Below are positions 8,391 through 64,000 of a stretch of DNA of 64,000 nucleotides, one piece after another. This DNA comes from an uncultured Candidatus Bathyarchaeia archaeon (GTDB lineage Archaea > Thermoproteota > CALKCG01 > B24). A program made the position numbers and the translations under genes. Position 1 is the first letter of the stretch. Each line of letters opens with the position of its first letter. The notes under the pieces were generated by a model. That model was not told where the DNA came from. It ran no database searches and saw only the letters and a program-made list of their open reading frames with translations. The stretch is from the NCBI GenBank assembly GCA_964463005.1, contig CAYWZZ010000006.1:4236-68235 (forward strand). The letters are read 5' to 3'.

Positions 8391-10355
8391 TTAAAACTTA
8401 ATCTTTACGGCTAAGTGAACTTTAATCTCTTCAAGCATAGCTTCTAAGACGCCGTCCCGGTAAACCCATCTGATTGAAGATTCTGGGGGAATTAGCTTCA
8501 ATTCCATCGGCTTCTTCTCAAGCTTGAGTTTAAACTCTACATTTCTTATCGGGGGTGTGCACTCTACATAGAAGGAATTTCCTGAAAGGTCTTTGTAAAC
8601 AGATAAGTTGCAGAAGTGAAGAATAATAGAATCCGCCCGTCTTCTCAAGACAACTTCAACTGTTGGAGGGGCTTTCAATTCCAGCGATTTAGCCATTACA
8701 GAGTCTAAAATAAACCCTATGATCTCTCTTATCTTAGGATATTGCTCAAACCAGTAAGCTCCAAAAACATCCGAGGCTATGTATACCGTTCTCCCAGATC
8801 CATACTTGTTCATTGAAACCGCAACTGCTCCCTCTTCATCTAAAGACTCCTTCTCAGACATTGATAGGGGAAGTATTTTACAAGCTTCTTTAAGTGAAAT
8901 CTTATGCCAAGGCTTATTTATCAGTATCTTCTCTCCTCTAAATGGAATCCAACCCTTAGGTATCGCATCAAATTCTAAATGTTTTAAACCGAATATCTCT
9001 ACGAATTCGTCCCGGTAATTGATCAGGGATTTTCCAGTAGCTATTAAAACCCCTCCCCTTTGAGCAAAACCCATTAAATTCTCCAATGTCGTTTTAGATA
9101 TGATTGATTGCTCAGCCAAGATTACAGCCTTACACTTGTCCAATCTACTTAGCAAGGTTTCCTCATCGACTATGTCAAACAGATAGTGTAACTCCTGCAA
9201 CGCTTTATGTGCACCCCTCAGCGGATCTAAAACTCTTCCATAATCGTAGAGGCCATTACCTACCTCGTAGAAATTTAAGGCGGAGTGTAGCAAAGCGACT
9301 TCATGGAAGGGTTCAGACTCTTCAAAAGCCTCAACCCTAGCACACACAAATTCCGCGCATTCAGCTACTATACGCATATGTGAAGGTTGAAGAGAATCGT
9401 CTTCAAGAGGGTTAACCCATATGAACCATTTACCACCATTAGCCATAATTACAGCTCCCTCTTGAAATAAGTGTACCGGATACTTAGGATAAGGTGTAGT
9501 ATTGCTCCAAGTAAAAGTCTGTAAAGCCGTCATTAAATCGAACGGTTTACCTCTAGTCGATAGAAACCTTGCCTCAAAGCTTGCTTGAAGAGGGCCGTGT
9601 GTTGGAGATATGTCTGCCGATATCCAATCTATGAAATCGGGGGGCGGATCTGGCATCCTGATCGTAAAAGACCAGTTACTTGTAAACAGACAGTTTGGAT
9701 TAAGCTTATGTATGAAGTCCGCGCACTTCTTCAAATACTTTACAAAACTTTCCCTGTGGAAGCTCATCCACGTCTTCCACAGTGGATCTTGTGGATTTTC
9801 AGGCGGTTCTCTACCATAATTTGCCATAAATGCCCTTTTACAGGAGTTACAATAGCATGGAGCTACGCTCCAACAATCTCCATCAAACCAGAAGCCGTCG
9901 GGATTATAAGCTTCAATTATTTCCTTAAGCTGTGGTAAAACTCTAGCCTCAACATAGTCGCTATTAGGGCATAAAACATCTTCACCTATGAACTCTCCCT
10001 TAGCATTACGTCTACGCCATTCAGGATGTTCTCTAGCCGCATATTCATCTTTCAAACCACTGTAATATACCGTGAACTTTATGCCGAGTTTTTCAGCAAC
10101 CCTTCTGTATATGGCTAGAGCATCTTTCACTATTGCGGGAGGAGAACCGCCTAGACGCGTTGGATAATTTGTCCATCCGGGATGTCCTTTAGAATGATAC
10201 TGTATAAAACCCGGTTTTATAGGTGCTATTAGAGAAGTTAATTCATCTAAGTCTGCTCCACCTCCTACTGGGGTGTTTGGTCCAACGTGGTGGTCGAAGT
10301 GTATATTGAGAAGCGTCTTCTTATACCATTCGCTTCTCAAATCGACACCAAACAT
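8391..10355 (-). CDS. divergent GH42-like (clan GH-A) glycoside hydrolase
   Basis: APCYCNSCKRAF has the Cx-C-xx-C cluster, and the surrounding region parallels the unambiguous GH42 at 57591..59615 (EYCYCEHC). The GVLIATGKS segment resembles the GH42 trimerisation domain. The N-terminus is not GH42-canonical. Confidence 0.5.
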   Translation of the reverse strand: MFGVDLRSEWYKKTLLNIHFDHHVGPNTPVGGGADLDELTSLIAPIKPGFIQYHSKGHPGWTNYPTRLGGSPPAIVKDALAIYRRVAEKLGIKFTVYYSGLKDEYAAREHPEWRRRNAKGEFIGEDVLCPNSDYVEARVLPQLKEIIEAYNPDGFWFDGDCWSVAPCYCNSCKRAFMANYGREPPENPQDPLWKTWMSFHRESFVKYLKKCADFIHKLNPNCLFTSNWSFTIRMPDPPPDFIDWISADISPTHGPLQASFEARFLSTRGKPFDLMTALQTFTWSNTTPYPKYPVHLFQEGAVIMANGGKWFIWVNPLEDDSLQPSHMRIVAECAEFVCARVEAFEESEPFHEVALLHSALNFYEVGNGLYDYGRVLDPLRGAHKALQELHYLFDIVDEETLLSRLDKCKAVILAEQSIISKTTLENLMGFAQRGGVLIATGKSLINYRDEFVEIFGLKHLEFDAIPKGWIPFRGEKILINKPWHKISLKEACKILPLSMSEKESLDEEGAVAVSMNKYGSGRTVYIASDVFGAYWFEQYPKIREIIGFILDSVMAKSLELKAPPTVEVVLRRRADSIILHFCNLSVYKDLSGNSFYVECTPPIRNVEFKLKLEKKPMELKLIPPESSIRWVYRDGVLEAMLEEIKVHLAVKIKF

Positions 10356-20877: not shown

Positions 20878-21964
20878 ATGATGATTGGTGAAAGCTTTTT
20901 CACACTTAGGACGATACTGTGGGAGGACGGAGCCATAGTTGCAGTAGATCAAAGGCTATTACCTAAAAGGTTCAAGTACGTTAAGATACGTAGTGTAGAC
21001 CAACTTTCTGAAGCCATTAAAAAACTCACCATAAGGGGGGCACCTGCCATAGGTGTTGCGGCAGCTCTTGGATTGGCATTGGTTGCATATAGATCTAAAG
21101 CGGAAAATCTAAGCGATTTTAAAAGGGAAGTTATGGATGCATACGAGAAGCTTAAATCTACTAGGCCTACAGCTGTAAACCTATTTTGGGCTCTTGACAG
21201 GGTTGTAGCGAAGATTTCTGAGGCAAAAGACCTTAAAGAGGCTAAGAAAATGATTATAGAAGAGGCTAAGACGATATGGATGGAGGATTATGAGGTAAAT
21301 AGACGCATAGGAGAGCATGGAGCTACACTACTTGAAAATGGGGATATGGTGCTCACGCACTGTAAATGGCTTAAGCCAGCAGAATGCGGGAGCACTAGCC
21401 ACTACTGGCTATGGAACCGCATTGGCAGTAATAAGGTCAGCTATAGCTAGGGGTTTACACATAGAAGTGTATGTAACTGAAACTAGACCAGTACTCCAAG
21501 GTGCTAGGTTAACGGCTTTCGAACTCCTTATGGATAGAATACCATTTAAACTCATAACAGATAATGCTGTCGGATTTCTGATGAGTAGGGGGCTTATAGA
21601 TAAGGTTGTAGTTGGCGCCGATAGAATAGCTTTAAACGGCGATGTTATAAATAAGATAGGGACTTACGGCTTGGCTGTTCTTGCAAGCCACCATGCGGTA
21701 CCATTCTACGTAGCAGCTCCAATGTCTACTATAGACCCTAATCTCAAATGCGGCGATAATGCCCCTATAGAGTTTAGAAGTGAAGAGGAAGTGGTTAAAA
21801 TTCACGGTCATAGGATAGCTCCTGAAGGCGTTGAAGCATTAAATCCAGCTTTTGACGTAACTCCTTCAAAGCTTGTAACGGCTATAATAACTGAGATGGG
21901 TGTGTTTAAGATACCGGAAGACTTAGATAGATTGAGGAGTATTAGGCTTGAGAAAAGCATTTAA
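20878..21964 (+). pseudogene. eIF-2B/MtnA family isomerase (methylthioribose-1-P isomerase or ribose-1,5-bisphosphate isomerase), with the reading frame broken at 21364-21382
   Basis: ORF 20878..21450 carries ...IRGAPAIGVAAALGLA...LTHC. ORF 21317..21964, in a different frame, carries [20 protein letters not shown]...[13 protein letters not shown]. The two halves are separated by 19 nt (aaatggcttaagccagcag) relative to the canonical THCNAGALAT. Confidence 0.6.
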
Positions 21965-26874: not shown

Positions 26875-29154
26875 ATGAGCGAAATTCCGTATTTAAATCC
26901 ATCTCTTCCAGTAGAGAAGCGGGTTGAAGACCTTCTTAAAAGGATGACTTTAAAAGAGAAGGTTGCTCAGCTGTGTTCGATACCTGCTAATGCTCTGTTT
27001 GAGGGAAGACGCTTCTCCCTTGAGAAGGCTCGTAGCATTCTCGTAGATGGTATTGGGCAGATAACCCGTTTAGCCGGAGACCACGTGCTTAAATTAAAAC
27101 CTAGAGAAGTTGCCGAAGCGGCAAATGCCATACAGCGTTTTCTAATCGAAGAGAGTAGGCTTCACATACCAGCCATAATACATGAGGAATGTCTAAGTGG
27201 TTTTATGGCTTGGGGAGGCACTACGTTTCCACAAGCCATAGGTTTAGCTAGTACATGGAATCCAGACTTAGTTGAGAAGATTGCTTCAACAATAAGACGC
27301 CAGATGAGAGCCGTAGGTGCACATCAAGGTCTTGCACCAGTTTTAGATGTTGCAAGAGACCCGAGGTGGGGTAGGGTTGAGGAAACGTATGGGGAAGACC
27401 CGTATCTTGTAGCGTCCATGGGCGTCTCATACGTTAGGGGATTACAGGGTGAAGATTGGAAGTCTAGAGTTTTAGCTACACCGAAGCACTTTGCAGCTCA
27501 CGGTTTTCCAGAAGGTGGGAGAAACTGCGCACCAGTACACGTCGGTGTTAGAGAGCTTAGGGAAGTTTTCCTACTACCGTTTGAGGCAGCCGTTAGAGTG
27601 GCCGGAGCACTGTCTATAATGAGCGCTTACCACGATATTGATGGAGTACCATGTACAGCATCTAAAGCTCTTCTGACTGATACTCTTAGAAGTGAGTGGG
27701 GTTTTCAGGGAATAGTCGTTTCAGATTATGGAGCTATACATATGCTTCATAGCTTCCACATGATAGCTTCTGATTTGAGGCAGGCTGCTGTTAAAGCTTT
27801 AGAGGCTGGTGTAGACGTTGAGCTACCAATGGCTCAGTGCTACATGGAGCCTTTACTGGAGGCTTTGAAGGATGGATTGATATCTGAAGCCACTGTAGAT
27901 ACCGCTGTTTCAAGGGTTTTAAGGATTAAATTCTTACTTGGGCTGTTTGAAAGCCCATATGTAGATATTGAAGAGGCGTCTAAAGTCTTTGATACAGTTC
28001 AGGATAGAAGCTTAGCCCTTCAAGCAGCGAGAGAATCAATAGTCCTCCTTAAAAATAATGGCGTCCTCCCGCTGAGCAAATCCATAGATTCCATAGCAGT
28101 CATTGGGCCTAATGCAGCTGAAGCTAGAAATCTCCTCGGAGATTACAGCTACACGGCTCACTTATCTCTTGAAAAACCCGCAGTCGAAGTCGTCAGTATA
28201 CTTGAAGGTATTAGGGCTAAAGTTTCAGCTACAACTAAAGTTTACTATGTTCAAGGATGCGGTATTTCAGACTACTCGAAAGTCGGGTTTAAGGAGGCTT
28301 TGGAAGTTGCTGGAAAATCCAGCGTTATCGTAGCGGTCATGGGTGAGAGGTCTGGGCTTTCGAAGTTCGATGTTTCAGGTGAAGGGCGTGATAGAGATGA
28401 CATAAGTCTGCCAGGCGTTCAGGAAGAGCTTTTAGAGGCTTTACTTGAGCTCGGTAAACCCCTCGTTCTAGTCCTCGTAAACGGTAGACCTCTAACCTTG
28501 AGTAGAATTGTCGATAGGTGTGCAGCTATTGTCGAGGCATGGCTTCCAGGAGAAGAGGGCGGAAGGGCTGTTACAGACGTATTGTTCGGCGACTACAATC
28601 CAAGTGGAAGATTGCCCGTGACATTTCCAAGAAGTTCGGGGCAGATCCCTCTATACTCTGCTATGAAGCCATCCTCTATTAGAAACTATGTTTTTACGGA
28701 AGCTAAGCCGCTATTCCCGTTTGGACATGGGTTAAGCTACACGGAGTTCGAGTACAGCTCGCTTAAGATAACTCCTGAGAGAGTTGAACCGGATGGTGAA
28801 GTATCCATAAGCTGTAGCATTAAGAATATTGGCCGTTTGAAAGGCGATGAAGTAGTACAAGTCTACGTGAGAGATGAATACGCTAGTGTAGCGAGGCCTG
28901 CGAAAGAGCTTAAAGGTTTTAAGAAGATCACACTTGAACCGGGTGAAGTGAAGAGGGTCAACTTTAAGATTTCAATGGATCAGTTGGCTTTCTACGACGA
29001 TCGGATGAGGCTTGTAGTAGAGCCTGGCTTCTTCAAAGTTATGGTGGGTAGGTCTTCCGAGGATATAAGGCTGACTGGGAGGTTTGAAGTGATTGGATGG
29101 AGGGAAGTCTCCTCCAGTACTAGAAGACTATTCAGTTCTACAATCGTCGAATAA
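26875..29154 (+). CDS. GH3 beta-glucosidase/beta-xylosidase
   Basis: KHFAAHG, GFQGIVVSDYGAI (the nucleophile region), and a C-terminal FnIII-like domain; 759 aa. Confidence 0.85.
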   Translation: MSEIPYLNPSLPVEKRVEDLLKRMTLKEKVAQLCSIPANALFEGRRFSLEKARSILVDGIGQITRLAGDHVLKLKPREVAEAANAIQRFLIEESRLHIPAIIHEECLSGFMAWGGTTFPQAIGLASTWNPDLVEKIASTIRRQMRAVGAHQGLAPVLDVARDPRWGRVEETYGEDPYLVASMGVSYVRGLQGEDWKSRVLATPKHFAAHGFPEGGRNCAPVHVGVRELREVFLLPFEAAVRVAGALSIMSAYHDIDGVPCTASKALLTDTLRSEWGFQGIVVSDYGAIHMLHSFHMIASDLRQAAVKALEAGVDVELPMAQCYMEPLLEALKDGLISEATVDTAVSRVLRIKFLLGLFESPYVDIEEASKVFDTVQDRSLALQAARESIVLLKNNGVLPLSKSIDSIAVIGPNAAEARNLLGDYSYTAHLSLEKPAVEVVSILEGIRAKVSATTKVYYVQGCGISDYSKVGFKEALEVAGKSSVIVAVMGERSGLSKFDVSGEGRDRDDISLPGVQEELLEALLELGKPLVLVLVNGRPLTLSRIVDRCAAIVEAWLPGEEGGRAVTDVLFGDYNPSGRLPVTFPRSSGQIPLYSAMKPSSIRNYVFTEAKPLFPFGHGLSYTEFEYSSLKITPERVEPDGEVSISCSIKNIGRLKGDEVVQVYVRDEYASVARPAKELKGFKKITLEPGEVKRVNFKISMDQLAFYDDRMRLVVEPGFFKVMVGRSSEDIRLTGRFEVIGWREVSSSTRRLFSSTIVE

Positions 29155-55985: not shown

Positions 55986-57524
55986 TTACATGCTTTCAGC
56001 CGTGGATAGTTCGGCTAGTATTTTGAAGCATTCCCTGTAGTGTTCATACACCTTTTGGTATGCTTTAATTAGTTTAGCGTATTCACTATGAGCCTTTGGA
56101 TTTGGATTATAGGTTTTAGATATTCTAACCATTTTAGCTACCGCTGTTTTGAAGTCCGCGTATACTTTTACGCCTACACTGGCGAGTATACAGGACCCTA
56201 GAGCTGCAGCATCGAGCACTTCAGGAACGTGTAGACTCATACCTAGAACGTCGGTCTTTATCTGATTCCATAGGTTGCTCTTAGCTTCACCACCAGTCAT
56301 GGTAATTCTTCTAACATCTACTCCAAGTCCTCTAACAAGCTGTAGGGTTTCAGAATATTGAAAAGCAACACCTTCGAGTATTGCTCTTATAAAGTCAGAT
56401 TTTCTATGGGCGTGTGTAAACCCTATGAACGCTGACCTAGCTAAGGGGTCAAATTTAGGAGCTCTAGCACCCCATAGGTATGGATAGTAGAAGAGGCCTC
56501 CGGCTCCTGGAGACACATTTGCTGCAATTCTATCGAAAAGCACGTAAGGCGATATGTTCTCCTCCCTAGCCTTATATGCCTCCTCATAGCCGAAGTTATC
56601 TCTAAACCACCTTAAAGATTCACCTGTAGCATTTATTATTACTTCATACTCCCACGTACTCGGTACAACGTGGCAACAACAGTCAATCAAGCCTTTAGGG
56701 TCAGGCTTAGCCTTGGATAAGGGGACTTCAAAAACAGTTCCAGTACCGGTACCTATATTTACATCGCCTTCCACATACACACCTACACCTAACGCCTCAC
56801 AGGGGCGGTCTCCACCGCCAGAGACGATCGGGACTCCTAGCGGTAGGCCTGTCTGCTCGGAAGCGCTACTGCCGACTTCACCTACCACCTCCCAAGACCC
56901 CTTAACCTCTGGAAGTATATCCATGGGTATTTCTAAGGATTCGCATATTTCGTCAGACCATTTAAGTTTATGGATATCGAATAACATCGTACGCGAAGCC
57001 ATACTGCGATCAGTTGTCTTAGTCCCACATAGCTTAAACGCTATGTAGTCTTTAGCGAATAGAATGACGTTTATTTTTTGAAATACATTTGACAAATTTT
57101 CCTTAAGCCATAGAAGCTTCGCGGCTGAGAAAATATGATCGACTGGAACGCCGGCTATTTTTAGAACTCTCTCCGGGGAGATCAGCTTTTCAATCTCATC
57201 TTTTTGCGGGATAGCCCTCATATCTAGCCATATTATGCTATTGTAAAGTTTTTCTCCAGTTTTATCTATTGGGACAAACGCTTCTCTTTGAGAAGTTAAG
57301 CCGATGCCGATTATATTCTCAGACGGTATTTTAGAAGTGATCTTTTTCAAAGCAAGTTTAGTCGCCTTCCACCATTCTTCAGGGTCTTGTTCAGCCCAGT
57401 TCATTTGAGGATGGTAGACTCGATACTCTTCAAACGCTTCTGCGACTATACGACCGTTAACGTCGAATGCTACCGTTTTACAGCCGCCAGTACCAATATC
57501 CAATCCAATTATGATTTGGCTCAT
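55986..57524 (-). CDS. FGGY-family carbohydrate kinase (xylulokinase/ribulokinase/glycerol-kinase-like)
   Basis: MSQIIIGLDIGTGGCKTV at the N-terminus and the two-domain FGGY layout; 512 aa. Confidence 0.85.
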   Translation of the reverse strand: MSQIIIGLDIGTGGCKTVAFDVNGRIVAEAFEEYRVYHPQMNWAEQDPEEWWKATKLALKKITSKIPSENIIGIGLTSQREAFVPIDKTGEKLYNSIIWLDMRAIPQKDEIEKLISPERVLKIAGVPVDHIFSAAKLLWLKENLSNVFQKINVILFAKDYIAFKLCGTKTTDRSMASRTMLFDIHKLKWSDEICESLEIPMDILPEVKGSWEVVGEVGSSASEQTGLPLGVPIVSGGGDRPCEALGVGVYVEGDVNIGTGTGTVFEVPLSKAKPDPKGLIDCCCHVVPSTWEYEVIINATGESLRWFRDNFGYEEAYKAREENISPYVLFDRIAANVSPGAGGLFYYPYLWGARAPKFDPLARSAFIGFTHAHRKSDFIRAILEGVAFQYSETLQLVRGLGVDVRRITMTGGEAKSNLWNQIKTDVLGMSLHVPEVLDAAALGSCILASVGVKVYADFKTAVAKMVRISKTYNPNPKAHSEYAKLIKAYQKVYEHYRECFKILAELSTAESM

Positions 57525-57590
57525 ACCACTTTAATCATAATTAGGTTACTGAAAAGATAAGGCTTCGCTCTTCGACTACCATGGGTTGCG

Positions 57591-59615
57591 CTAGTCTTTA
57601 AAGTAGAGTATTTCAACATCATGTGGGTTAAGCGTAAGCTTTACGGTTTTACCTTCTACATGAAAATCTCTGAGGAGACTTTTGACATCTAAGACGCCGC
57701 CGAAGTCTAATTCTACTGTTTTACTCCTCGGATCATGGTTTATCAGGAACAGTACTCTGTAATCACGGCCTTTCTTAGACACTAGTTCAACTGGTTCACC
57801 TCTAAGTCCAACGGGAGGTTTAACAAACCCTCTTTCAACGATTTTACCAGCTATAAGTTCAGACGCATCTTGAGTTAGAAAGCAACCAATGTATACAGCG
57901 TAACCCTTACCATAACGGTTGACTGTTAGACCGGGCTTTCCTTTAAACCACTCATAATCATGAACCCCTAAGACTTGGGCGGACGTTACAGTCAACTCTT
58001 CCAGCCAACTTGAGGCAGATATCAACCCATACTGAGTGGATATCTTAGCCTCTCTTCCAGGTGGAATTGAGGTATAATCTGTCACCCGTAGACCGAATAA
58101 ATCTTTAAGTTCACCTGGAAGACCGTTTGAATATACCTGGTTGAACTCGTCCTTAACTGAGGTCCTAGCCGTCGCTATGAGTAAGCCTCCGCCCTCTACG
58201 TAGCTTTTAAGCTTTTCAATAAGACTTTTACTCGTTAAGTATAGGAATGGAGCTAACAATACTCGGTATTTTGTAAATTCTCCATCTGGAGGTACTACAT
58301 CTACATTTACGCCTTGACTCCAGAAGCCCTTATATGCGTTTAGCACCTGTTCATGATAGCTTGTAGTGTAATACTTATCTTCGATTAATGTAGCCCAGAG
58401 AGAATCATATGAAAATATAAGCCCAACTTCACTCTCATATTTAGCATCGACTAAGACTTCGCCGATTTTCCTCAGCTCTTCACCAACTTTCTTCACCTCC
58501 AGATATCTACGATTCACTTCACCATCGTGGTTTAAAATGCCGTGCCAATACTGCTCTTTGCCAAAGCATACCGTTCGATATCTAAAGTAAACGACGCCTT
58601 CAGCTCCATGGGCAATCGACTGATAGAGCCATTTCCTCAGTTCACCTGGATCAGGCGTCACACCTATCGGATTTCCAGCATAACCATCAGTTGGCCCAGC
58701 CTGAAGCTCCATGACCCAAAAGTTTCCCGCACCCATGCATCTAGTAGCGTCGTGAAGTAGGGATATCCAGGCGGGGTCGTAATGTGGTCTAGCAAACTTT
58801 GGATAGCAATCCCACGATGGGAAGTCTAAGTTTTTACTGAGATCGTAGTAGTCTATGCCTGGGAAAAGCCCCATGAGGTTTGTCGTCACCCTCTTATCAG
58901 GGCTTATAGACTTCAGTATATGCACCTGTATTTTGAGGAAATTCACAAAAGACTCTGACCTAAACTTAAACCAGTCTAAGCTTAGTCCCCGGTTACATTC
59001 ATCGAATGGTGGATTGGGGGGATGTATTTCATCCCAATCACTATACTCATGGCTCCAAAATATTGTTCCATAGGCTTTATTGAGTTCGTTTATAGATCCA
59101 TACTTGTCTCTAAGCCAATTTCTGAAAAGTGTAATGCAGTGTTCACAGTAACAGTATTCGTTGCCAAGAGACAGTTCATTATCTATCTGATACCCTATGA
59201 CGTTTGGATTATCCCTGTAGTGTTCAGCCATGGCTTTTACGATTCTTTCAGAAGCTTTAATGTAGTTTGGATTATTTGGACAGTAGTGTCTTCTAGCGAC
59301 AGGGGGCATCCTATAGCCTTTAAAGCTCACTGGCAAAATATCTGGGTGGTTTTTTACAAGCCAAGGCGGAGGAGTTGCTGTTGGAGTACCCAATATCGCT
59401 TTAACGCCTTTAGTTGATAAAAGTTCTATAACATCGTCAAGCCACTGGAAGTTGAACTTACCTGGTGAAGGTTCAAGTCTACACCATGCAAATTCTGCAA
59501 GCCTAACAACATTGAATCCAGCTCCACTGATGAGGCTGGCGTCTAAAACTCTTCTTTCAACAGGCCAGTGTTCAGGGTAATAGTCTACGCCGAACCATAG
59601 TTTAACATCGCTCAT
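57591..59615 (-). CDS. GH42 beta-galactosidase
   Basis: WFGVDYYPEHWP N-terminus. NEYCYCEHC zinc-site cluster. Trimerisation domain. 674 aa. Confidence 0.85.
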   Translation of the reverse strand: MSDVKLWFGVDYYPEHWPVERRVLDASLISGAGFNVVRLAEFAWCRLEPSPGKFNFQWLDDVIELLSTKGVKAILGTPTATPPPWLVKNHPDILPVSFKGYRMPPVARRHYCPNNPNYIKASERIVKAMAEHYRDNPNVIGYQIDNELSLGNEYCYCEHCITLFRNWLRDKYGSINELNKAYGTIFWSHEYSDWDEIHPPNPPFDECNRGLSLDWFKFRSESFVNFLKIQVHILKSISPDKRVTTNLMGLFPGIDYYDLSKNLDFPSWDCYPKFARPHYDPAWISLLHDATRCMGAGNFWVMELQAGPTDGYAGNPIGVTPDPGELRKWLYQSIAHGAEGVVYFRYRTVCFGKEQYWHGILNHDGEVNRRYLEVKKVGEELRKIGEVLVDAKYESEVGLIFSYDSLWATLIEDKYYTTSYHEQVLNAYKGFWSQGVNVDVVPPDGEFTKYRVLLAPFLYLTSKSLIEKLKSYVEGGGLLIATARTSVKDEFNQVYSNGLPGELKDLFGLRVTDYTSIPPGREAKISTQYGLISASSWLEELTVTSAQVLGVHDYEWFKGKPGLTVNRYGKGYAVYIGCFLTQDASELIAGKIVERGFVKPPVGLRGEPVELVSKKGRDYRVLFLINHDPRSKTVELDFGGVLDVKSLLRDFHVEGKTVKLTLNPHDVEILYFKD

Positions 59616-59648
59616 AATTCACATCTCTTGATGAGAGAGCAATAAGCG

Positions 59649-61010
59649 TTATTCTTCTGAGAGGAATTTCGTACCCCAATGTTCTAATGCCTTTCGCAAC
59701 TCAACGTGGTCTTTAGCATACTCTCCTAAGGGGATGTTATTCATAAATGCCTCCATAGCCTGTCGCATAGCCGTTGCGCCAGCTTTAGTCCCCATCGGAT
59801 GCCCATGGATGCCTCCCCCGGCATTCAGCTGAATATCTGGAAAGCCTAGCAGTTGTAGGTTTGCGGGAACTAAAGCTGGATGTATCCCACCGGAGGCTAC
59901 GGGTAATGTCGATTTAAGACCATACCAGTCACTTCTCAGAAAGTCGTTCATATAGCGAATTCCGGCAAGACCGGAAAAACTTTCAAGCTGCTTCAACGCT
60001 CCGCTACCGGGTTTCTCCATCTTACCCTTAGCAGTCCCCGTATGCAGTTGATCACCGCCAGCCAACCTAACGAGCTTAGCTAATACGAGCATGTGAATGC
60101 CGTGCTCGGGGTTTCTCGTCATAGCAGCATGTAGACATCTATGGACGTGAATTGGAACTTTAACAGATGGATCTTCGGCCAACTCCCTTAAAGCAGGGTA
60201 ACCCGTGCAGAGGACATCTATCATTATGCAGTTGGCACCATTACTGAGGGCTATCTCAACGTTCTTCCACAATCTATTCAAATCCGCTGTAACATCAACT
60301 GCATATAACACCGTTCTACCAGTTTCCTCCTTAACTTTATCGAGCACACTCATCACGTGAGAAACTCTTTCTTCCAACTGGTTGAACTTTTGACTTGTAA
60401 GCGTTTCATCGTCCTTTATGAAGTCAACACCACCTATGGCAGCTTCATATGCCACTTTAGCCGTCTCCGCGGGGTTGAGGCCTACTTTAGGTTTGATTAT
60501 CGTACCTAAGTGAGGCCTTGGATTTCCATGAGTGCCTATTATTCTCCTCACACCCTCTATGCCGAATTTCGGTCCTTTAAACATCTTAACGTATTCTTTA
60601 GGTAGGCTTACGTCTAGCAATCTCACATTTTTTAGAGCACCTATTCCAAACAAGTTGCCAGCTATGATTGAAAGCATATGCGAAATGCCAGCTTCTAAAT
60701 CAAATAAATCTAAAGGAAATGCCACTTTTGCCAATCCTCCACCATTTAACTTCTCAACTTGAAAGACTTTACCTGCTAACTTCAATACCCTATCAGTTAT
60801 CGTTACAACTTTTGTCCACGTTCCTATAGATTGTTCAGCAACAAGGTTTATCGCAGCACTTTGAAGGCTGAGATTTTCCCTTGGGGTTATGTAATAGAGA
60901 CATATAACGTGACTATCGGGGTCTATTTCCTCAACACTGGCTGTGAAGGTTTTTATCCAAAATTCCTCCTCAAACCACTCCTTACTCATGCCCATGAAGG
61001 CAACGCCCAC
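59649..61010 (-). CDS. rbcL: RuBisCO large subunit homologue with a complete catalytic residue set (form III-like)
   Basis: AEQSIGTWT (E60/T65/W66), AGNLFG (N123), IIKPKVGL (K175/K177), GGVDFIKDDE (K201/D203/E204), HVHRCLH (H294/R295/H298), GGDQLHTGT (H327), ASGGIH (S379) and NAGGGIHGHP (G403/G404). Confidence 0.8.
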   Translation of the reverse strand: MGVAFMGMSKEWFEEEFWIKTFTASVEEIDPDSHVICLYYITPRENLSLQSAAINLVAEQSIGTWTKVVTITDRVLKLAGKVFQVEKLNGGGLAKVAFPLDLFDLEAGISHMLSIIAGNLFGIGALKNVRLLDVSLPKEYVKMFKGPKFGIEGVRRIIGTHGNPRPHLGTIIKPKVGLNPAETAKVAYEAAIGGVDFIKDDETLTSQKFNQLEERVSHVMSVLDKVKEETGRTVLYAVDVTADLNRLWKNVEIALSNGANCIMIDVLCTGYPALRELAEDPSVKVPIHVHRCLHAAMTRNPEHGIHMLVLAKLVRLAGGDQLHTGTAKGKMEKPGSGALKQLESFSGLAGIRYMNDFLRSDWYGLKSTLPVASGGIHPALVPANLQLLGFPDIQLNAGGGIHGHPMGTKAGATAMRQAMEAFMNNIPLGEYAKDHVELRKALEHWGTKFLSEE

Positions 61011-61152
61011 ATAATATTAGTTTGACTAGTATAAAAACGTGATTTTACAGGCAACCTAATTTAACTGACATCGAATCTCCATCTGCAATGTTGAGGAGAA
61101 ATTATTAATTCTGGATTGGAAGAATGTTACTCTTAGAGGGGTTTGATTTAAA

Positions 61153-62601
61153 ATGAGGTACTTCCTAGGTTTGGATGTAGGTACTAAGAATATTAAAGCA
61201 ACCGTGTTAAGCGATGAAGGAAACATCGAAGAAGAGGTTTCGATTTCAGTTTACGACTTGATAAATCAGCCTAGAGCTGGGTTTGTAGAGCGCGATCCAC
61301 TGGCGCTCTGGAAGAGGGTATGCGATAGTTTAAAGAGGCTTAAACTTAAAGATAAAATTGAAGGTGTTTGCGTTGACGCTACGAGCGGCACGATTGTGCC
61401 AGTAGATGAGGCGGGCATCCCTCTGCACAACCTTATAATGTACAATGATAGTAGAGCTGTAACAGAGGCGGAGGAGCTTAGAAAGTCTAGCTCTAAAGCA
61501 CGTGAATTTGAAAGTTTCCTTCCAATAACACCTCAGCTAGTTCTACCTAAAATAATGTGGATGAAAGAACATTGTGAATTCTACGGAAGGATCTATAAAA
61601 TACTCCATGAAAGCGACTACATAGTCTATAAATTAACTGGATTATTCGCATCTTCTACTAACACTGCCGGAAAATCTCACGCGCTTTTAGACCGTTTAAA
61701 GTACCTTGAAGAGGCATATGAAGATGTAAATGTACCAGTTGACTTTATGCCCGAGTTAAAGCCCATAGGCTCAATAGTAGGTTACGTGACGGAGAATGCA
61801 AGCGTGGAAACTGGCTTACCGAGTGGAATACCTGTGATAAATGGGGTTACAGATGCAAGCGCCGGAGATATAACTTCAGGAGCCATAAAAGCTGGACAAG
61901 CAAATGCAACGATAGGTACAGCTTTGACAGTTCACGTAGTCGTTGATAAACCCGTACCAGACGCATTTCAACGATTCTACTACAAAACATACGTTAACGA
62001 TTTGTTCCTAGCAGGAGGATTTACAAACGCAGGGACAACTGCTTTAGACACTATGAGTAGACTTTTAGGTAAAAATCTCATGGAGCTCACGGATATGGCT
62101 AGGAAGGTTCCACCGGGTTGCGAGGGTCTAATTGCATGTACAGAATGGTATGGCGTAAGAGTGCCGAAGACATATCCTAGTGTCAGAGGATTTTTCATCG
62201 GGCTTTCAGAAATCACGGCAAATCCGGGTGTTATCTTTAGAAGTATGTTGGAGGGGTCTGCTTTAGCGCTTAAACTTATGCTGGATTCTGTAGAGGAGGT
62301 GACGAAGATTAAAGTGTACGATCTTAGGGTGAGTGGGGGTGCTTCTAGAAATGACCTATTTATGAGTATCATAGCTGACGTTTCAGGTAAAGACGTTTAC
62401 GCAGTTGAAGAGCCAAATTCCGCCGTTGGTTCAGCTATATTGGCTATGTGGGGCTGTACAGGGGGAGAAATAGAGAAGATAGTGAGTAAAGTGGTTAAGA
62501 TAAGGGAGCGGTTTAAGCCTAATATGGAAAACCATGTAAAATATTCGAATCTACTGGATAAGTATGTTAAATTGGTTGAAAACCTAGCTAAGATAGTATA
62601 G
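61153..62601 (+). CDS. FGGY-family carbohydrate kinase, second copy
   Basis: MRYFLGLDVGTKNIKATV at the N-terminus; 482 aa. Divergent from the rbcL operon. Confidence 0.8.
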   Translation: MRYFLGLDVGTKNIKATVLSDEGNIEEEVSISVYDLINQPRAGFVERDPLALWKRVCDSLKRLKLKDKIEGVCVDATSGTIVPVDEAGIPLHNLIMYNDSRAVTEAEELRKSSSKAREFESFLPITPQLVLPKIMWMKEHCEFYGRIYKILHESDYIVYKLTGLFASSTNTAGKSHALLDRLKYLEEAYEDVNVPVDFMPELKPIGSIVGYVTENASVETGLPSGIPVINGVTDASAGDITSGAIKAGQANATIGTALTVHVVVDKPVPDAFQRFYYKTYVNDLFLAGGFTNAGTTALDTMSRLLGKNLMELTDMARKVPPGCEGLIACTEWYGVRVPKTYPSVRGFFIGLSEITANPGVIFRSMLEGSALALKLMLDSVEEVTKIKVYDLRVSGGASRNDLFMSIIADVSGKDVYAVEEPNSAVGSAILAMWGCTGGEIEKIVSKVVKIRERFKPNMENHVKYSNLLDKYVKLVENLAKIV

Positions 62602-62694
62602 CTTAGAGTCCTTAATAAGGTTAGGCTTCAAGTGAAGCGATGCATTTATCTCGTACTCAATGGATTTTTATAACCGCGGATATGGTACAATTTC

Positions 62695-63381
62695 ATGGTG
62701 TCAACTTTGAAGTTTAAAGCAATAGTGCTTGATATGGATGGTACTCTTGTAGACTCTTCGGAGGCACATTTGAAAGCATGGTCTAAGGCTGCTGAGAAGC
62801 TGGGCGTTTATGTTCCAGAAAGCAAGATAAAGTCTGAGTTCGGTAAGTCGAGTTACGATATGGCTAAGGCTTTCCTACCACCTGATAGAGTTGAAGATGC
62901 TATTCGATTTGCTGAGCTTAAAGATAGGATATTCATGGAGGATTGTTTAAGCCTAATTAAGCCGATCGTAGGGGTAGCAGAGGCTCTTAAAGGATTTAAA
63001 GAAGTAGGTCTAGATATCGCCGTAGCTTCTTCAAACCCACGGAGGCTTGTAGTTAAAGTTTTAAATCTAACCAACCTGCTAGGCTACGTGGATGTTGTAA
63101 TCGGTTCCGAAGACGTTAGGAGGGGGAAGCCGCATCCAGATATGGTTGAAGAAGCCATTAAAAGACTGAATGTGAAGCCATGTGAAGCCATATACGTGGG
63201 CGATACGGTGTACGATGTAAAAGCAGGCAAAGCAGCTGGCGTATTCACAGTCGCCGTTTTAACAGGAGTAGCATCTAGAGAAGAGCTTGAGAATTCGCAA
63301 CCTGATATGATAGTGGAAAACATAAAAGATCTGTTAAAGAGCTTAACGGGTGGGCGCTATCCATTCGTAGAGAAAACATAA
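62695..63381 (+). CDS. HAD-superfamily hydrolase, subfamily IA (phosphatase/beta-phosphoglucomutase-like)
   Basis: IVLDMDGTLVDS is motif I. Also SSNPRR and VGDTVYDVKAGKAAG. Confidence 0.8.
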   Translation: MVSTLKFKAIVLDMDGTLVDSSEAHLKAWSKAAEKLGVYVPESKIKSEFGKSSYDMAKAFLPPDRVEDAIRFAELKDRIFMEDCLSLIKPIVGVAEALKGFKEVGLDIAVASSNPRRLVVKVLNLTNLLGYVDVVIGSEDVRRGKPHPDMVEEAIKRLNVKPCEAIYVGDTVYDVKAGKAAGVFTVAVLTGVASREELENSQPDMIVENIKDLLKSLTGGRYPFVEKT

Positions 63382-63414
63382 ATTTAGGTTACGTGAATGG
63401 TCTAAACGGTTTAT

Positions 63415-64000
63415 ATGAAGCCAATTAGAGTAATTGACTTAAGTCAAGTACTGTACAACTGTCTGCCTTTATGGCCTACTCAGCCAAACCTTCTATATGA
63501 GATGTTGAGCAATGTTGCACGTGACGGAAGTACTATGCATGTAATTCGACAAATGACTACACATAGCGGCACACGTCGACGTACCTCTGCATTTCATATT
63601 TGATGGAAGATCCGTCGACCAAATGTCGATAGAAGATTTCACTGGCGAAGGTCTAGTAGTAGACCTGTCGTATAAGAGAGCTGGAGAAGCAATAACCATT
63701 AATGACATCAAAGTTTACGAGAGTGAGATAAAGCCTGGAGATGTTTTAATACTTCACACCGGATGGGATAAGAAATTCGGATTTAACCCAGAGTATCTTT
63801 TCGAATGGCCGTATGTAATAGAGGAGACTGCTGAATACTTAGTTGGAAAGAAGATAAAAGCCCTCGGAGTTGATACGTTAAGTGTTGGCGGTTGGGATGG
63901 ACAACTACCAGGACATGGCCCAGTAGCGGTTAAAGGATCGCCAGCTAGAGTCCACCGTATTCTACTCGGTGCTGGTATAGTCCTCATAGAGTCTTTAACG
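63415..64000 (+). pseudogene. cyclase-family protein (kynurenine-formamidase-like); frame broken by loss of an AC dinucleotide at about 63571-63574; the 3' end runs off the window
   Basis: ORF 63415..63603 ends ...MTTHSGTRRRTSAFHI. Restoring acacac gives the canonical HSGTHVDVPLHFIFDG, and the rest of the cyclase domain follows in the shifted frame (...ILHTGWDKKFG...). Confidence 0.5.

Follow-up and report, generated by a model that had tools for sequence, protein, structure and literature searches.

A residue-complete form III RuBisCO gene among FGGY kinase and other sugar genes in Bathyarchaeia, and its possible part in sugar catabolism

Towards the end of a 64-kb stretch of DNA from an uncultured Candidatus Bathyarchaeia archaeon (the whole stretch is called the window here), a gene for the large subunit of form III RuBisCO (RbcL) lies in a cluster of sugar-related genes (Table 1). 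Genes for a GH42 glycosidase and a kinase of the FGGY family (FGGY-A) follow it on its own strand, and genes for a second FGGY kinase (FGGY-B), a HAD-IA hydrolase and a cyclase run away from it on the other. A preliminary description of this DNA had proposed that the cluster encodes an undescribed route from a glycoside-derived pentose or pentulose to ribulose-1,5-bisphosphate (RuBP) and on to two molecules of 3-phosphoglycerate (3-PGA). Our analysis of the window and of the retrieved loci compared with it (L001–L112) suggests, with a probability that we put at about one half, that RbcL is a functional form IIIB enzyme from a thermophilic Bathyarchaeia archaeon that degrades sugars, that RuBisCO has been recruited into carbohydrate-utilisation clusters in the window's clade, and that it would act there as the terminal carboxylating step of a pentose or pentulose catabolism fed by FGGY kinases.

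Table 1. Genes and intergenic region of the RuBisCO–kinase cluster in the window
Feature	Position	Strand	Description
FGGY-A	55986..57524	-	XylB-type pentulose kinase; 66 nt from GH42
GH42	57591..59615	-	Glycoside hydrolase, beta-galactosidase family; 33 nt downstream of RbcL
RbcL	59649..60995	-	Form IIIB-type RuBisCO large subunit, 448 aa; reading frame extends to a GTG at 61010
RbcL/FGGY-B divergent intergenic region	60996..61152		A/T-rich TATA-like boxes near both ends
FGGY-B	61153..62601	+	Uncharacterised FGGY kinase subfamily
HAD-IA hydrolase	62695..63381	+	Nearest to phosphoglycolate and sugar-phosphate phosphatases
Cyclase/arylformamidase-like gene	63416..64000	+	PF04199; frameshifted near 63570; cut by the window end

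The layout of the cluster is as the preliminary description had it. The open reading frames place all six genes at the coordinates and on the strands given there, Pfam and NCBIfam agree on their names, the gaps between RbcL, GH42 and FGGY-A are those claimed, and FGGY-B, the HAD-IA gene and the cyclase gene diverge from the RbcL side of the same intergenic region. Because a 448-aa product identical to RbcL from the ATG onwards (P0001) is on record from three sources, translation probably starts at the ATG at 60995, and the divergent intergenic region is therefore 157 nt long. TATA-like boxes also occur on both sides of this spacer in other lineages, in which it measures 59–360 nt, and the boxes in the window may be promoters. 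Co-transcription of the three minus-strand genes, as earlier suggested, is plausible for RbcL and GH42; it is uncertain for FGGY-A, because L003 and L004 have 411 and 280 nt, respectively, in the corresponding spacer. A 133-kb hot-spring contig from JGI and a contig from ENA match the window, and the loci related to it are annotated as metagenome-assembled genomes (MAGs) of Bathyarchaeota or Thermoproteota.

RbcL matches both RuBisCO domains over their full length (PF02788, 104 bits; PF00016, 269 bits). We checked its active-site motifs in HMMER alignments to the solved enzymes 2cwx, 8dht and 6hun and in a 90-sequence alignment of RbcL homologues from the retrieved loci. Aligned to solved form III enzymes, RbcL keeps the canonical motifs GTWT, GNLFG, KPK, DFIKDDE, HVHRCLH, HTGT, GKM, SGG and GGG, as had been read by eye; in full, the aligned segments are AEQSIGTWT, AGNLFG, IIKPKVGL, GVDFIKDDE, IHVHRCLHAA, QLHTGT, GKM, VASGGIHP and NAGGGIHGHP. 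By motif equivalence we take them to hold the counterparts of spinach E60, T65, W66, N123, K175, K177, K201, D203, E204, H294, R295, H298, H327, K334, S379, G380, G381, G403 and G404. The counterpart of spinach T173 is Ile, and IIKPK or IVKPK is also found in relatives with canonical neighbours; indeed, the motifs are identical to those of relatives encoded beside ribose-1,5-bisphosphate (R15P) isomerase and AMP phosphorylase. Form IV proteins from Microbacterium, Paenibacillus and Clostridia in the same alignment have KPS/KPC, HGHRNGWG, NKF and SSGQ instead, and because they show the expected residue losses, the alignment discriminates form IV. The motif table, in which no catalytic residue (such as K177, H298, K334 or S379/G380) is lost, together with the model scores, rules out that RbcL is a form IV RuBisCO-like protein (RLP). 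In this respect the preliminary description holds, and the gene is predicted to encode a residue-complete RuBisCO.

Among NCBIfam models, TIGR03326 (rubisco_III) ranks top at 442 bits, below its equivalog cut-off of 497, and the other RuBisCO-family models score much lower (form II, 270 bits; MtnW, 264/216; OiaX, 215). RbcL is thus form III by best match, short of the curated threshold. The same model gives 436 bits for Methanomethylicota RbcLs flanked by R15P isomerase and AMP phosphorylase and 456 bits for L009, which has AMP phosphorylase nearby. Because RbcLs with canonical neighbours score alike, the low score is a trait of this region of the tree and not a sign of altered function, and the idea that a sub-cut-off score signals neofunctionalisation was rejected. 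The best solved relatives are 2cwx, 8dht, 6hun and 1geh, of which 1GEH, 2CWX and 8DHT are labelled form IIIB (PMC13454268). No RuBisCO small-chain domain was found among neighbours within 10 kb in precomputed Pfam lists. Two features are specific to the clade. An insertion of about 10 residues stands right after loop 6 (GKMEKPGSGALKQLESFSGLAG; RbcL residues ~333–352) and is present in all relatives of at least 65% identity, whatever their context; other deep-branching rubiscos have an insertion at residues 340–354 (PMC13454268). At the Ala296 position (RbcL residue 291), Cys replaces the usual Ala or Thr (HRCLH or HRCMH) in most, not all, FGGY-linked RbcLs.

Of the two kinases, FGGY-A has both FGGY_N and FGGY_C domains and a GGGD motif and passes the XylB model TIGR01312 by a small margin (385.4 bits; cut-off, 380.25); by this match it is a XylB-type pentulose kinase, with a pentulose as its predicted substrate. 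FGGY-B, with domains PF00370 and PF02782 and the catalytic Asp in NGVTDASAGD, reaches no curated subfamily cut-off: its best model is XylB (231 bits, against 380), its best solved relative scores 123 bits, and TSGT stands in place of the usual QRE/GQ sugar-binding motif. It is only ~28% identical to FGGY-A, and its orthologues are 41–94% identical to the window protein. The family is discrete, comprising ~60 clusters of at least 38% identity, those with names all archaeal, before the next drop to 31% or less. FGGY-B apparently forms a subfamily of its own, seen so far only in archaea.

FGGY-B is also the most conserved neighbour of RbcL in the window clade. In the close relatives L003, L007, L008, L087–L090 and L096 (RbcL identity, 87–96%), the order is FGGY-A, GH42 and RbcL, then divergent FGGY-B; all of them except L090 also have the HAD and cyclase genes, and a DeoC-type aldolase gene and DUF6785 are found wherever the available sequence extends that far. 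FGGY-A directly follows RbcL in L004 (80%); with the close relatives, this brings the loci with an FGGY-A orthologue (72–94% identity) beside RbcL to L003, L004, L007, L008, L087–L090 and L096. L093 (77%) has RbcL, FGGY-B and a DeoC-type aldolase gene, and in L005 and L092 (76%) an operon of GHL6 and FGGY-B, with GHL6 upstream, converges on RbcL to within 2 nt. At 57–61% RbcL identity, the divergent RbcL–FGGY-B pair is present in L013, L101, L102, L106, L014, L099 and L110, and in Hodarchaeota (L111) the two genes are co-directional with a 20-nt overlap, followed by a phosphoglycerate-dehydrogenase-like gene. The adjacency thus extends over ~7 lineages, two phyla and three arrangements (divergent by 59–360 nt, convergent at 2 nt, overlapping), and the divergence of FGGY-B parallels that of RbcL. 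Counted over GTDB species representatives, 4 of the 10 loci in the clade have FGGY-B beside RbcL, against 0 of the 70 outside it (Fisher p = 1.3e-4, to be read only as a guide; the loci are phylogenetically non-independent). Seen from the FGGY-B side, RbcL is next door in 12 of 23 informative metagenome loci, and more distant FGGY-B homologues (45–47% identity) are not linked to RbcL. Of the synteny first noted in the window, both kinases therefore recur beside RbcL in many loci, and GH42 only where RbcL is at least 87% identical; GH42 was ruled out as a conserved partner beyond close relatives.

We also looked for another partner of FGGY-B in loci without RbcL and found only unrelated housekeeping genes, with one exception. 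In L112 (GCA_037917685.1; 1774..8440), a 47%-identical FGGY-B homologue stands beside a complete phosphotransferase system (PTS; EI, HPr, EIIA and EIIC-GAT), and the locus has no RbcL near it. A PTS would be unusual for an archaeon; for this branch of FGGY-B it hints at a galactitol- or ascorbate-type substrate. In the Hodarchaeota locus (L111 1218..9440; GCA_048886745.1), an FGGY kinase gene comes after each of two RuBisCO-family genes. One of these encodes a form IV RLP without KPK or HxHRxxH, accompanied by a 522-aa XylB-like kinase and a saccharopine-dehydrogenase-like gene; the other is the complete form III RbcL that overlaps FGGY-B, and beyond this pair lie PGDH-like, Ldh-like, aminotransferase and HAD genes. 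In two relatives from the QZM set (L003 3868..7796 and L008 5871..9631), two DUF6785-like paralogues, 28–32% identical to a 659-aa DUF6785 protein beyond the window end, lie between RbcL and FGGY-B; the FGGY-B of L003 is called as two pieces of 412 and 64 aa.

In a neighbour-joining tree, the FGGY-linked RbcLs group in a single clade with Thermofilum L012 and with L009, L010, L011 and L015, which have no FGGY neighbour. No member of this clade has a neighbour of the e2b2 family, whereas the sister clades include 29 loci with IF-2B/e2b2 and 16 with AMP phosphorylase; one sister-clade e2b2 protein is a genuine R15P isomerase by the model TIGR00511 (400 bits; cut-off, 314). The earlier statement that the context differs from that of known form III genes is thus borne out for the whole clade, which lies amid sugar genes and not beside R15P isomerase or AMP phosphorylase. 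Because the RbcL loci of Methanomicrobiales form a separate branch, the window RbcL is IIIB-like rather than IIIa.

The sugar genes themselves vary within the clade. In Thermofilum sp. ex4484_15 (L012 843..9379), RbcL (65% identical) is flanked by three FucI/AraA-like isomerase paralogues and lies next to a ribose-type (CUT2) ABC transporter, and no FGGY kinase is present beside it in the available flanks. A class II aldolase gene adjoins RbcL in L013, L101 and L102, with ribulose-1-phosphate (Ru1P) aldolase and then fuculose-phosphate aldolase as top models; the L013 protein scores 158 bits on NF053831 (cut-off, 300), and this locus also has a rhamnulokinase-like kinase. L014 and L103 carry a MalK-type transporter, a XylB-like kinase, a zinc-dependent alcohol dehydrogenase, an Ord-like dehydrogenase and a class III aminotransferase, and a class I aldolase of DeoC/DhnA type is found in 10 loci, including the window lineage, L091 and L093. 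The recruitment of two non-homologous aldolase types beside the same kinase hints that a ketose-1-phosphate is involved, and suggests a parallel, non-carboxylating branch through such a compound. A purine-PRTase-like gene near RbcL in L005 and L012 was set aside as a weak match that is probably housekeeping.

The remaining genes of the window cluster are less widely shared. GH42 has PF02449 (437 bits), PF08532 (162 bits) and PF08533 (25 bits), and its best solved relatives are all beta-galactosidases (254–418 bits); in its translation we read DNE, VMELQ and CxCxxC as acid/base, nucleophile and zinc site. The window also encodes a GH3 glycosidase with an Fn3-like domain (26875..29154, +) and a GHL6/alpha-L-fucosidase-like protein (8391..10355, -), whose Pfam family is also that of the gene upstream of FGGY-B in L005. 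With an AXE1-type esterase gene beyond the window end, these two glycosidases indicate that the organism is saccharolytic. The HAD-IA gene, kept in the cluster among close relatives only, had been proposed to encode a mutase, and this part of the proposal finds no support: the protein (PF13419) scores below cut-off on PpaX (122 bits), PGP_bact (111) and the haloarchaeal RuBP 5-phosphatase NF053830 (61), and its best solved relatives are the phosphoglycolate phosphatases 2nyv and 2yy6. Most simply, it would be a phosphoglycolate or sugar-phosphate phosphatase. HAD phosphatases clear the oxygenase by-product in Calvin–Benson–Bassham operons, and such removal fits the protein better than a mutase step, because it is closest to phosphoglycolate phosphatases. 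The cyclase gene has a 2-nt deletion in a CACACA run (63560..63575, +) within its HxGTHxD motif by comparison with L087, L088 and L003 (window, GGCACACGTCGAC; L088, GGCACACATGTTGAT), and tblastn recovers it in two frames (63415–63573 and 63560–63997). It is called as 165 aa in L001 and L002 (contigs from JGI and ENA) and as 234 aa in L003, and the truncated form is either a pseudogene or a shared assembly error. Scans of the window for tRNAs and Rfam families returned only three ordinary tRNAs.

For the supply of RuBP we turned to a relative with a published gene inventory. Qi et al. (2021; PMC8407382) assigned RuBisCO of hot-spring Bathyarchaeia to AMP metabolism and reported phosphoribulokinase (PRK) in none of their Bathyarchaeia genomes. 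Their MAG QZM_A2_bin_24 is the source of L008, which has the same cluster as the window, and Data Set S2 of that paper enters AMP phosphorylase, R15P isomerase, adenine phosphoribosyltransferase (APRT), phosphoribosyl pyrophosphate (PRPP) synthase, RpiA, Fae-Hps and Phi at 1 each, and transketolase, transaldolase and Rpe at 0 (PMC8407382); its genome-statistics table gives the MAG a value of 86.8, taken here as percent completeness (PMC8407382). The enzymes of the canonical RuBP supply are therefore listed for this relative. In the 64-kb window, tblastn found neither AMP phosphorylase nor R15P isomerase, and the only e2b2 gene is of MtnA type. Known enzymes can lead from a pentulose-5-phosphate to RuBP by way of ribulose-5-phosphate, ribose-5-phosphate, PRPP, AMP and R15P. 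In an organism that has no pentose phosphate pathway, RuBisCO would be the one obvious way out for C5 sugar phosphates, and its placement beside pentulose kinases would then make sense.

That e2b2 gene (20878..21964, +) looks frameshifted; once repaired, it is of MtnA type and not an R15P isomerase gene. The break is an exact 19-nt insert (21365..21383; AAATGGCTTAAGCCAGCAG) between the conserved THC and NAGALAT motifs, and its removal restores an open reading frame of 355 aa. In the folded RNA of this site (-31.2 kcal/mol; z = -4.0), a 4-bp helix lies between two bulges, one on each strand, and cuts within both bulges take out 19 nt and bring the two halves into one frame. Relatives at 91.5% nucleotide identity carry the insert and the flanks of the helix unchanged, and both halves of the gene have a ratio of non-synonymous to synonymous substitution (dN/dS) of ~0.09 at a dS of ~0.34. 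No intact mtnA homologue of more than 60% identity was among the best 120 matches listed from a collection of 5.8 billion proteins. The insert is a candidate bulge–helix–bulge mRNA intron, and the gene is probably spliced and not dead; the documented introns of this kind that we found are in cbf5 genes of some Crenarchaeota (PMC2738675). A broken e2b2 gene as the mark of a dead AMP pathway was ruled out, as the gene is of MtnA type and both halves are under purifying selection.

Taken together, these data suggest the following route. Glycosidases and transporters would supply sugars, and FGGY-A and FGGY-B would phosphorylate pentuloses or related ketoses, their substrates being predicted from family membership. 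The pentulose phosphate would then be converted to RuBP in one of two ways: through a second phosphorylation that makes RuBP directly, for which FGGY-B is the candidate, or through RpiA, PRPP synthase, APRT, AMP phosphorylase and R15P isomerase, encoded elsewhere. RuBisCO would combine RuBP with CO2 to give two 3-PGA, which would enter glycolysis. Such a route could give a C5 sugar outlet to an organism that reportedly has no transketolase, transaldolase, Rpe or PRK. That FGGY-B makes RuBP directly, as a non-homologous replacement of PRK or as a Ru1P 5-kinase, seems to us unlikely.

Several observations weigh against this reading. Because the relative MAG lists AMP phosphorylase, R15P isomerase and APRT, a canonical RuBP supply is available, and it does not depend on adjacency of the genes. 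We are aware of no member of the FGGY family with a phosphorylated substrate, so a direct RuBP-forming step would be unprecedented. About half of FGGY-B loci have no RbcL nearby and unrelated housekeeping genes as neighbours, and no isomerase is visible in the window cluster. The link to GH42 is shallow, extending to RbcLs of at least 87% identity, and L005 has GHL6 as a different glycosidase-like gene; as the best solved relatives of GH42 are beta-galactosidases, its product is as likely to be a hexose as a pentose. Gene absences in the MAG may reflect incompleteness. Of the earlier proposal of a sugar-fed route, the kinase context, which recurs, and the residue-complete enzyme stand; the parts given to GH42 and to a mutase do not, and the canonical RuBP supply counts against it.

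These observations leave room for an ordinary form III role, which we regard as possible though not probable: RuBisCO would serve only the AMP/nucleoside pathway, its partner enzymes would be encoded elsewhere, and the sugar genes would be chance neighbours or share the promoter region. R15P isomerase and AMP phosphorylase do adjoin RbcL in sister clades, and the closest FGGY-less relative (L006/L009, 74–75% identity) has a NUDIX gene directly downstream and AMP phosphorylase 6.6 kb away. The genes for AMP phosphorylase, R15P isomerase and RuBisCO are also unlinked in Thermococcus kodakarensis. The published assignment to AMP metabolism and the AMP phosphorylase, R15P isomerase and APRT of QZM_A2_bin_24 (PMC8407382) point the same way. 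Such a role leaves unexplained why RbcL and FGGY-B stay together in ~7 lineages from two phyla and in three gene orders, one of them an overlapping operon, and why isomerases, aldolases and sugar transporters recur around RbcL in the window clade only. A second alternative is a variant of the pentose bisphosphate pathway: as a non-homologous kinase, FGGY-B would phosphorylate ribose-1-phosphate (R1P) from nucleosides, or a similar compound, to R15P, R15P isomerase and RuBisCO would act as usual, and the HAD protein and aldolase would form the non-carboxylating branch of haloarchaea. The R1P kinases of different lineages are not homologous to one another, further ones may be hidden among archaeal sugar kinases with no assigned function, and haloarchaea have an operon of a kinase, R15P isomerase, a HAD RuBP phosphatase and a FucA-type Ru1P aldolase (Sato et al. 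2022, PMC9700705). The RbcL cluster likewise has genes for a kinase, a HAD protein and an aldolase, and for the aldolase of L013 the haloarchaeal Ru1P aldolase model ranks first. We nevertheless consider this variant rather improbable: scores on the haloarchaeal models are far below the cut-offs (HAD, 61 against 330; aldolase, 158 against 300), the cluster has no nucleoside phosphorylase, and in L005 the operon partner of FGGY-B is a glycosidase-like gene, an indication that the substrate is a free sugar. Known R1P kinases, which we take to be of ribokinase/PfkB type, count against it as well; they are not of the FGGY family and are 25–37% identical among themselves (PMC9700705).

Least probable by far is that RbcL acts not on RuBP but, like an RLP, on the monophosphate made by the adjacent kinase, through enolase, isomerase, decarboxylase or transcarboxylase chemistry. 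Modules of a kinase and an RLP do exist (the NCBIfam OiaX model describes a 3-oxo-isoapionate-4-phosphate decarboxylase), and the true form IV RLP of Hodarchaeota has another FGGY kinase gene directly after it. Across the FGGY-linked clade, however, the carbamylation, metal, loop 6 and both phosphate-site residues are kept, whereas the aligned form IV proteins have lost them, and form III models beat form IV models by ~180 bits.

If RuBisCO does terminate a sugar-fed route, what is known is the enzyme and its end reaction, and what is new is the conserved feeder context of FGGY kinases and sugar genes. In full-text literature searches we found no publication that connects FGGY, xylulo-, ribulo- or carbohydrate kinases with form III RuBisCO, and a 2026 survey of the context of rubisco loci mentions no kinase other than prk. 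Form III RuBisCO in archaea is now explained by two feeders, AMP/nucleoside salvage and, in some methanogens, PRK. With a third, RuBisCO genes of Bathyarchaeia and Asgard archaea from sediments and hot springs would signal heterotrophic use of C5 sugars with obligatory CO2 uptake, and would not be read as carbon fixation or nucleotide salvage. The view of pentose catabolism in archaea without a pentose phosphate pathway would change, and an archaeal FGGY subfamily now annotated 'xylulokinase' or 'hypothetical' would gain a function. Were FGGY-B to make RuBP, it would be the first FGGY kinase acting on a sugar phosphate and would complete a two-kinase carboxylating pentulose pathway in PRK-less archaea (Bathyarchaeia and some Asgard); with Fae-Hps and Phi, the parts for a CO2-fixing cycle like the reductive hexulose-phosphate (RHP) pathway would be present.

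The closest known system is the AMP/pentose bisphosphate pathway of T. kodakarensis, with AMP phosphorylase, R15P isomerase, form III RuBisCO and an ADP-dependent R1P kinase. It shares with the window the class of RuBisCO, the presumed end reaction from RuBP and CO2 to two 3-PGA, and the C5 exit in organisms without a pentose phosphate pathway. In the window clade, however, RuBisCO adjoins FGGY kinases, glycosidases, isomerases and aldolases and not R15P isomerase or AMP phosphorylase, and this neighbourhood suggests free sugars, not nucleotides, as the input. The haloarchaeal non-carboxylating pentose bisphosphate pathway (ATP-dependent R1P kinase, R15P isomerase, HAD RuBP 5-phosphatase and FucA-type Ru1P aldolase; PMC9700705) resembles the cluster in grouping a sugar kinase, a HAD-IA protein and an aldolase. 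By contrast, RuBisCO is present here, the kinase is of FGGY type, R15P isomerase is not in the cluster, the HAD protein and aldolase fall below the curated cut-offs, and the aldolase of the window lineage is of the class I DeoC/DhnA type.

In the RHP pathway of methanogens (PRK, form IIIa RuBisCO and Hps/Phi; Kono et al. 2017, PMC5241800), an archaeal RuBisCO is likewise fed by a kinase whose substrate is a pentulose phosphate, and the relative MAG QZM_A2_bin_24 has Fae-Hps and Phi; PRK, however, is reported in none of the hot-spring Bathyarchaeia genomes of Qi et al., and a PRK-like role of FGGY-B is conjecture. Bacterial pathways for pentoses, pentitols and deoxyhexoses (XylB, AraB/AraD, FucI/FucK/FucA and RhaB/RhaD) draw on the same families that surround RbcL in the window clade: XylB-type and rhamnulokinase-like kinases, FucI/AraA-like isomerases, class II aldolase-family proteins, zinc-dependent polyol-dehydrogenase-like proteins and sugar ABC transporters. 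Unlike the bacterial kinases, FGGY-B has TSGT and not QRE/GQ and lies below every curated subfamily cut-off. The bacterial FGGY pathways drain to the pentose phosphate pathway or to dihydroxyacetone phosphate and an aldehyde, and none of them has a RuBisCO.

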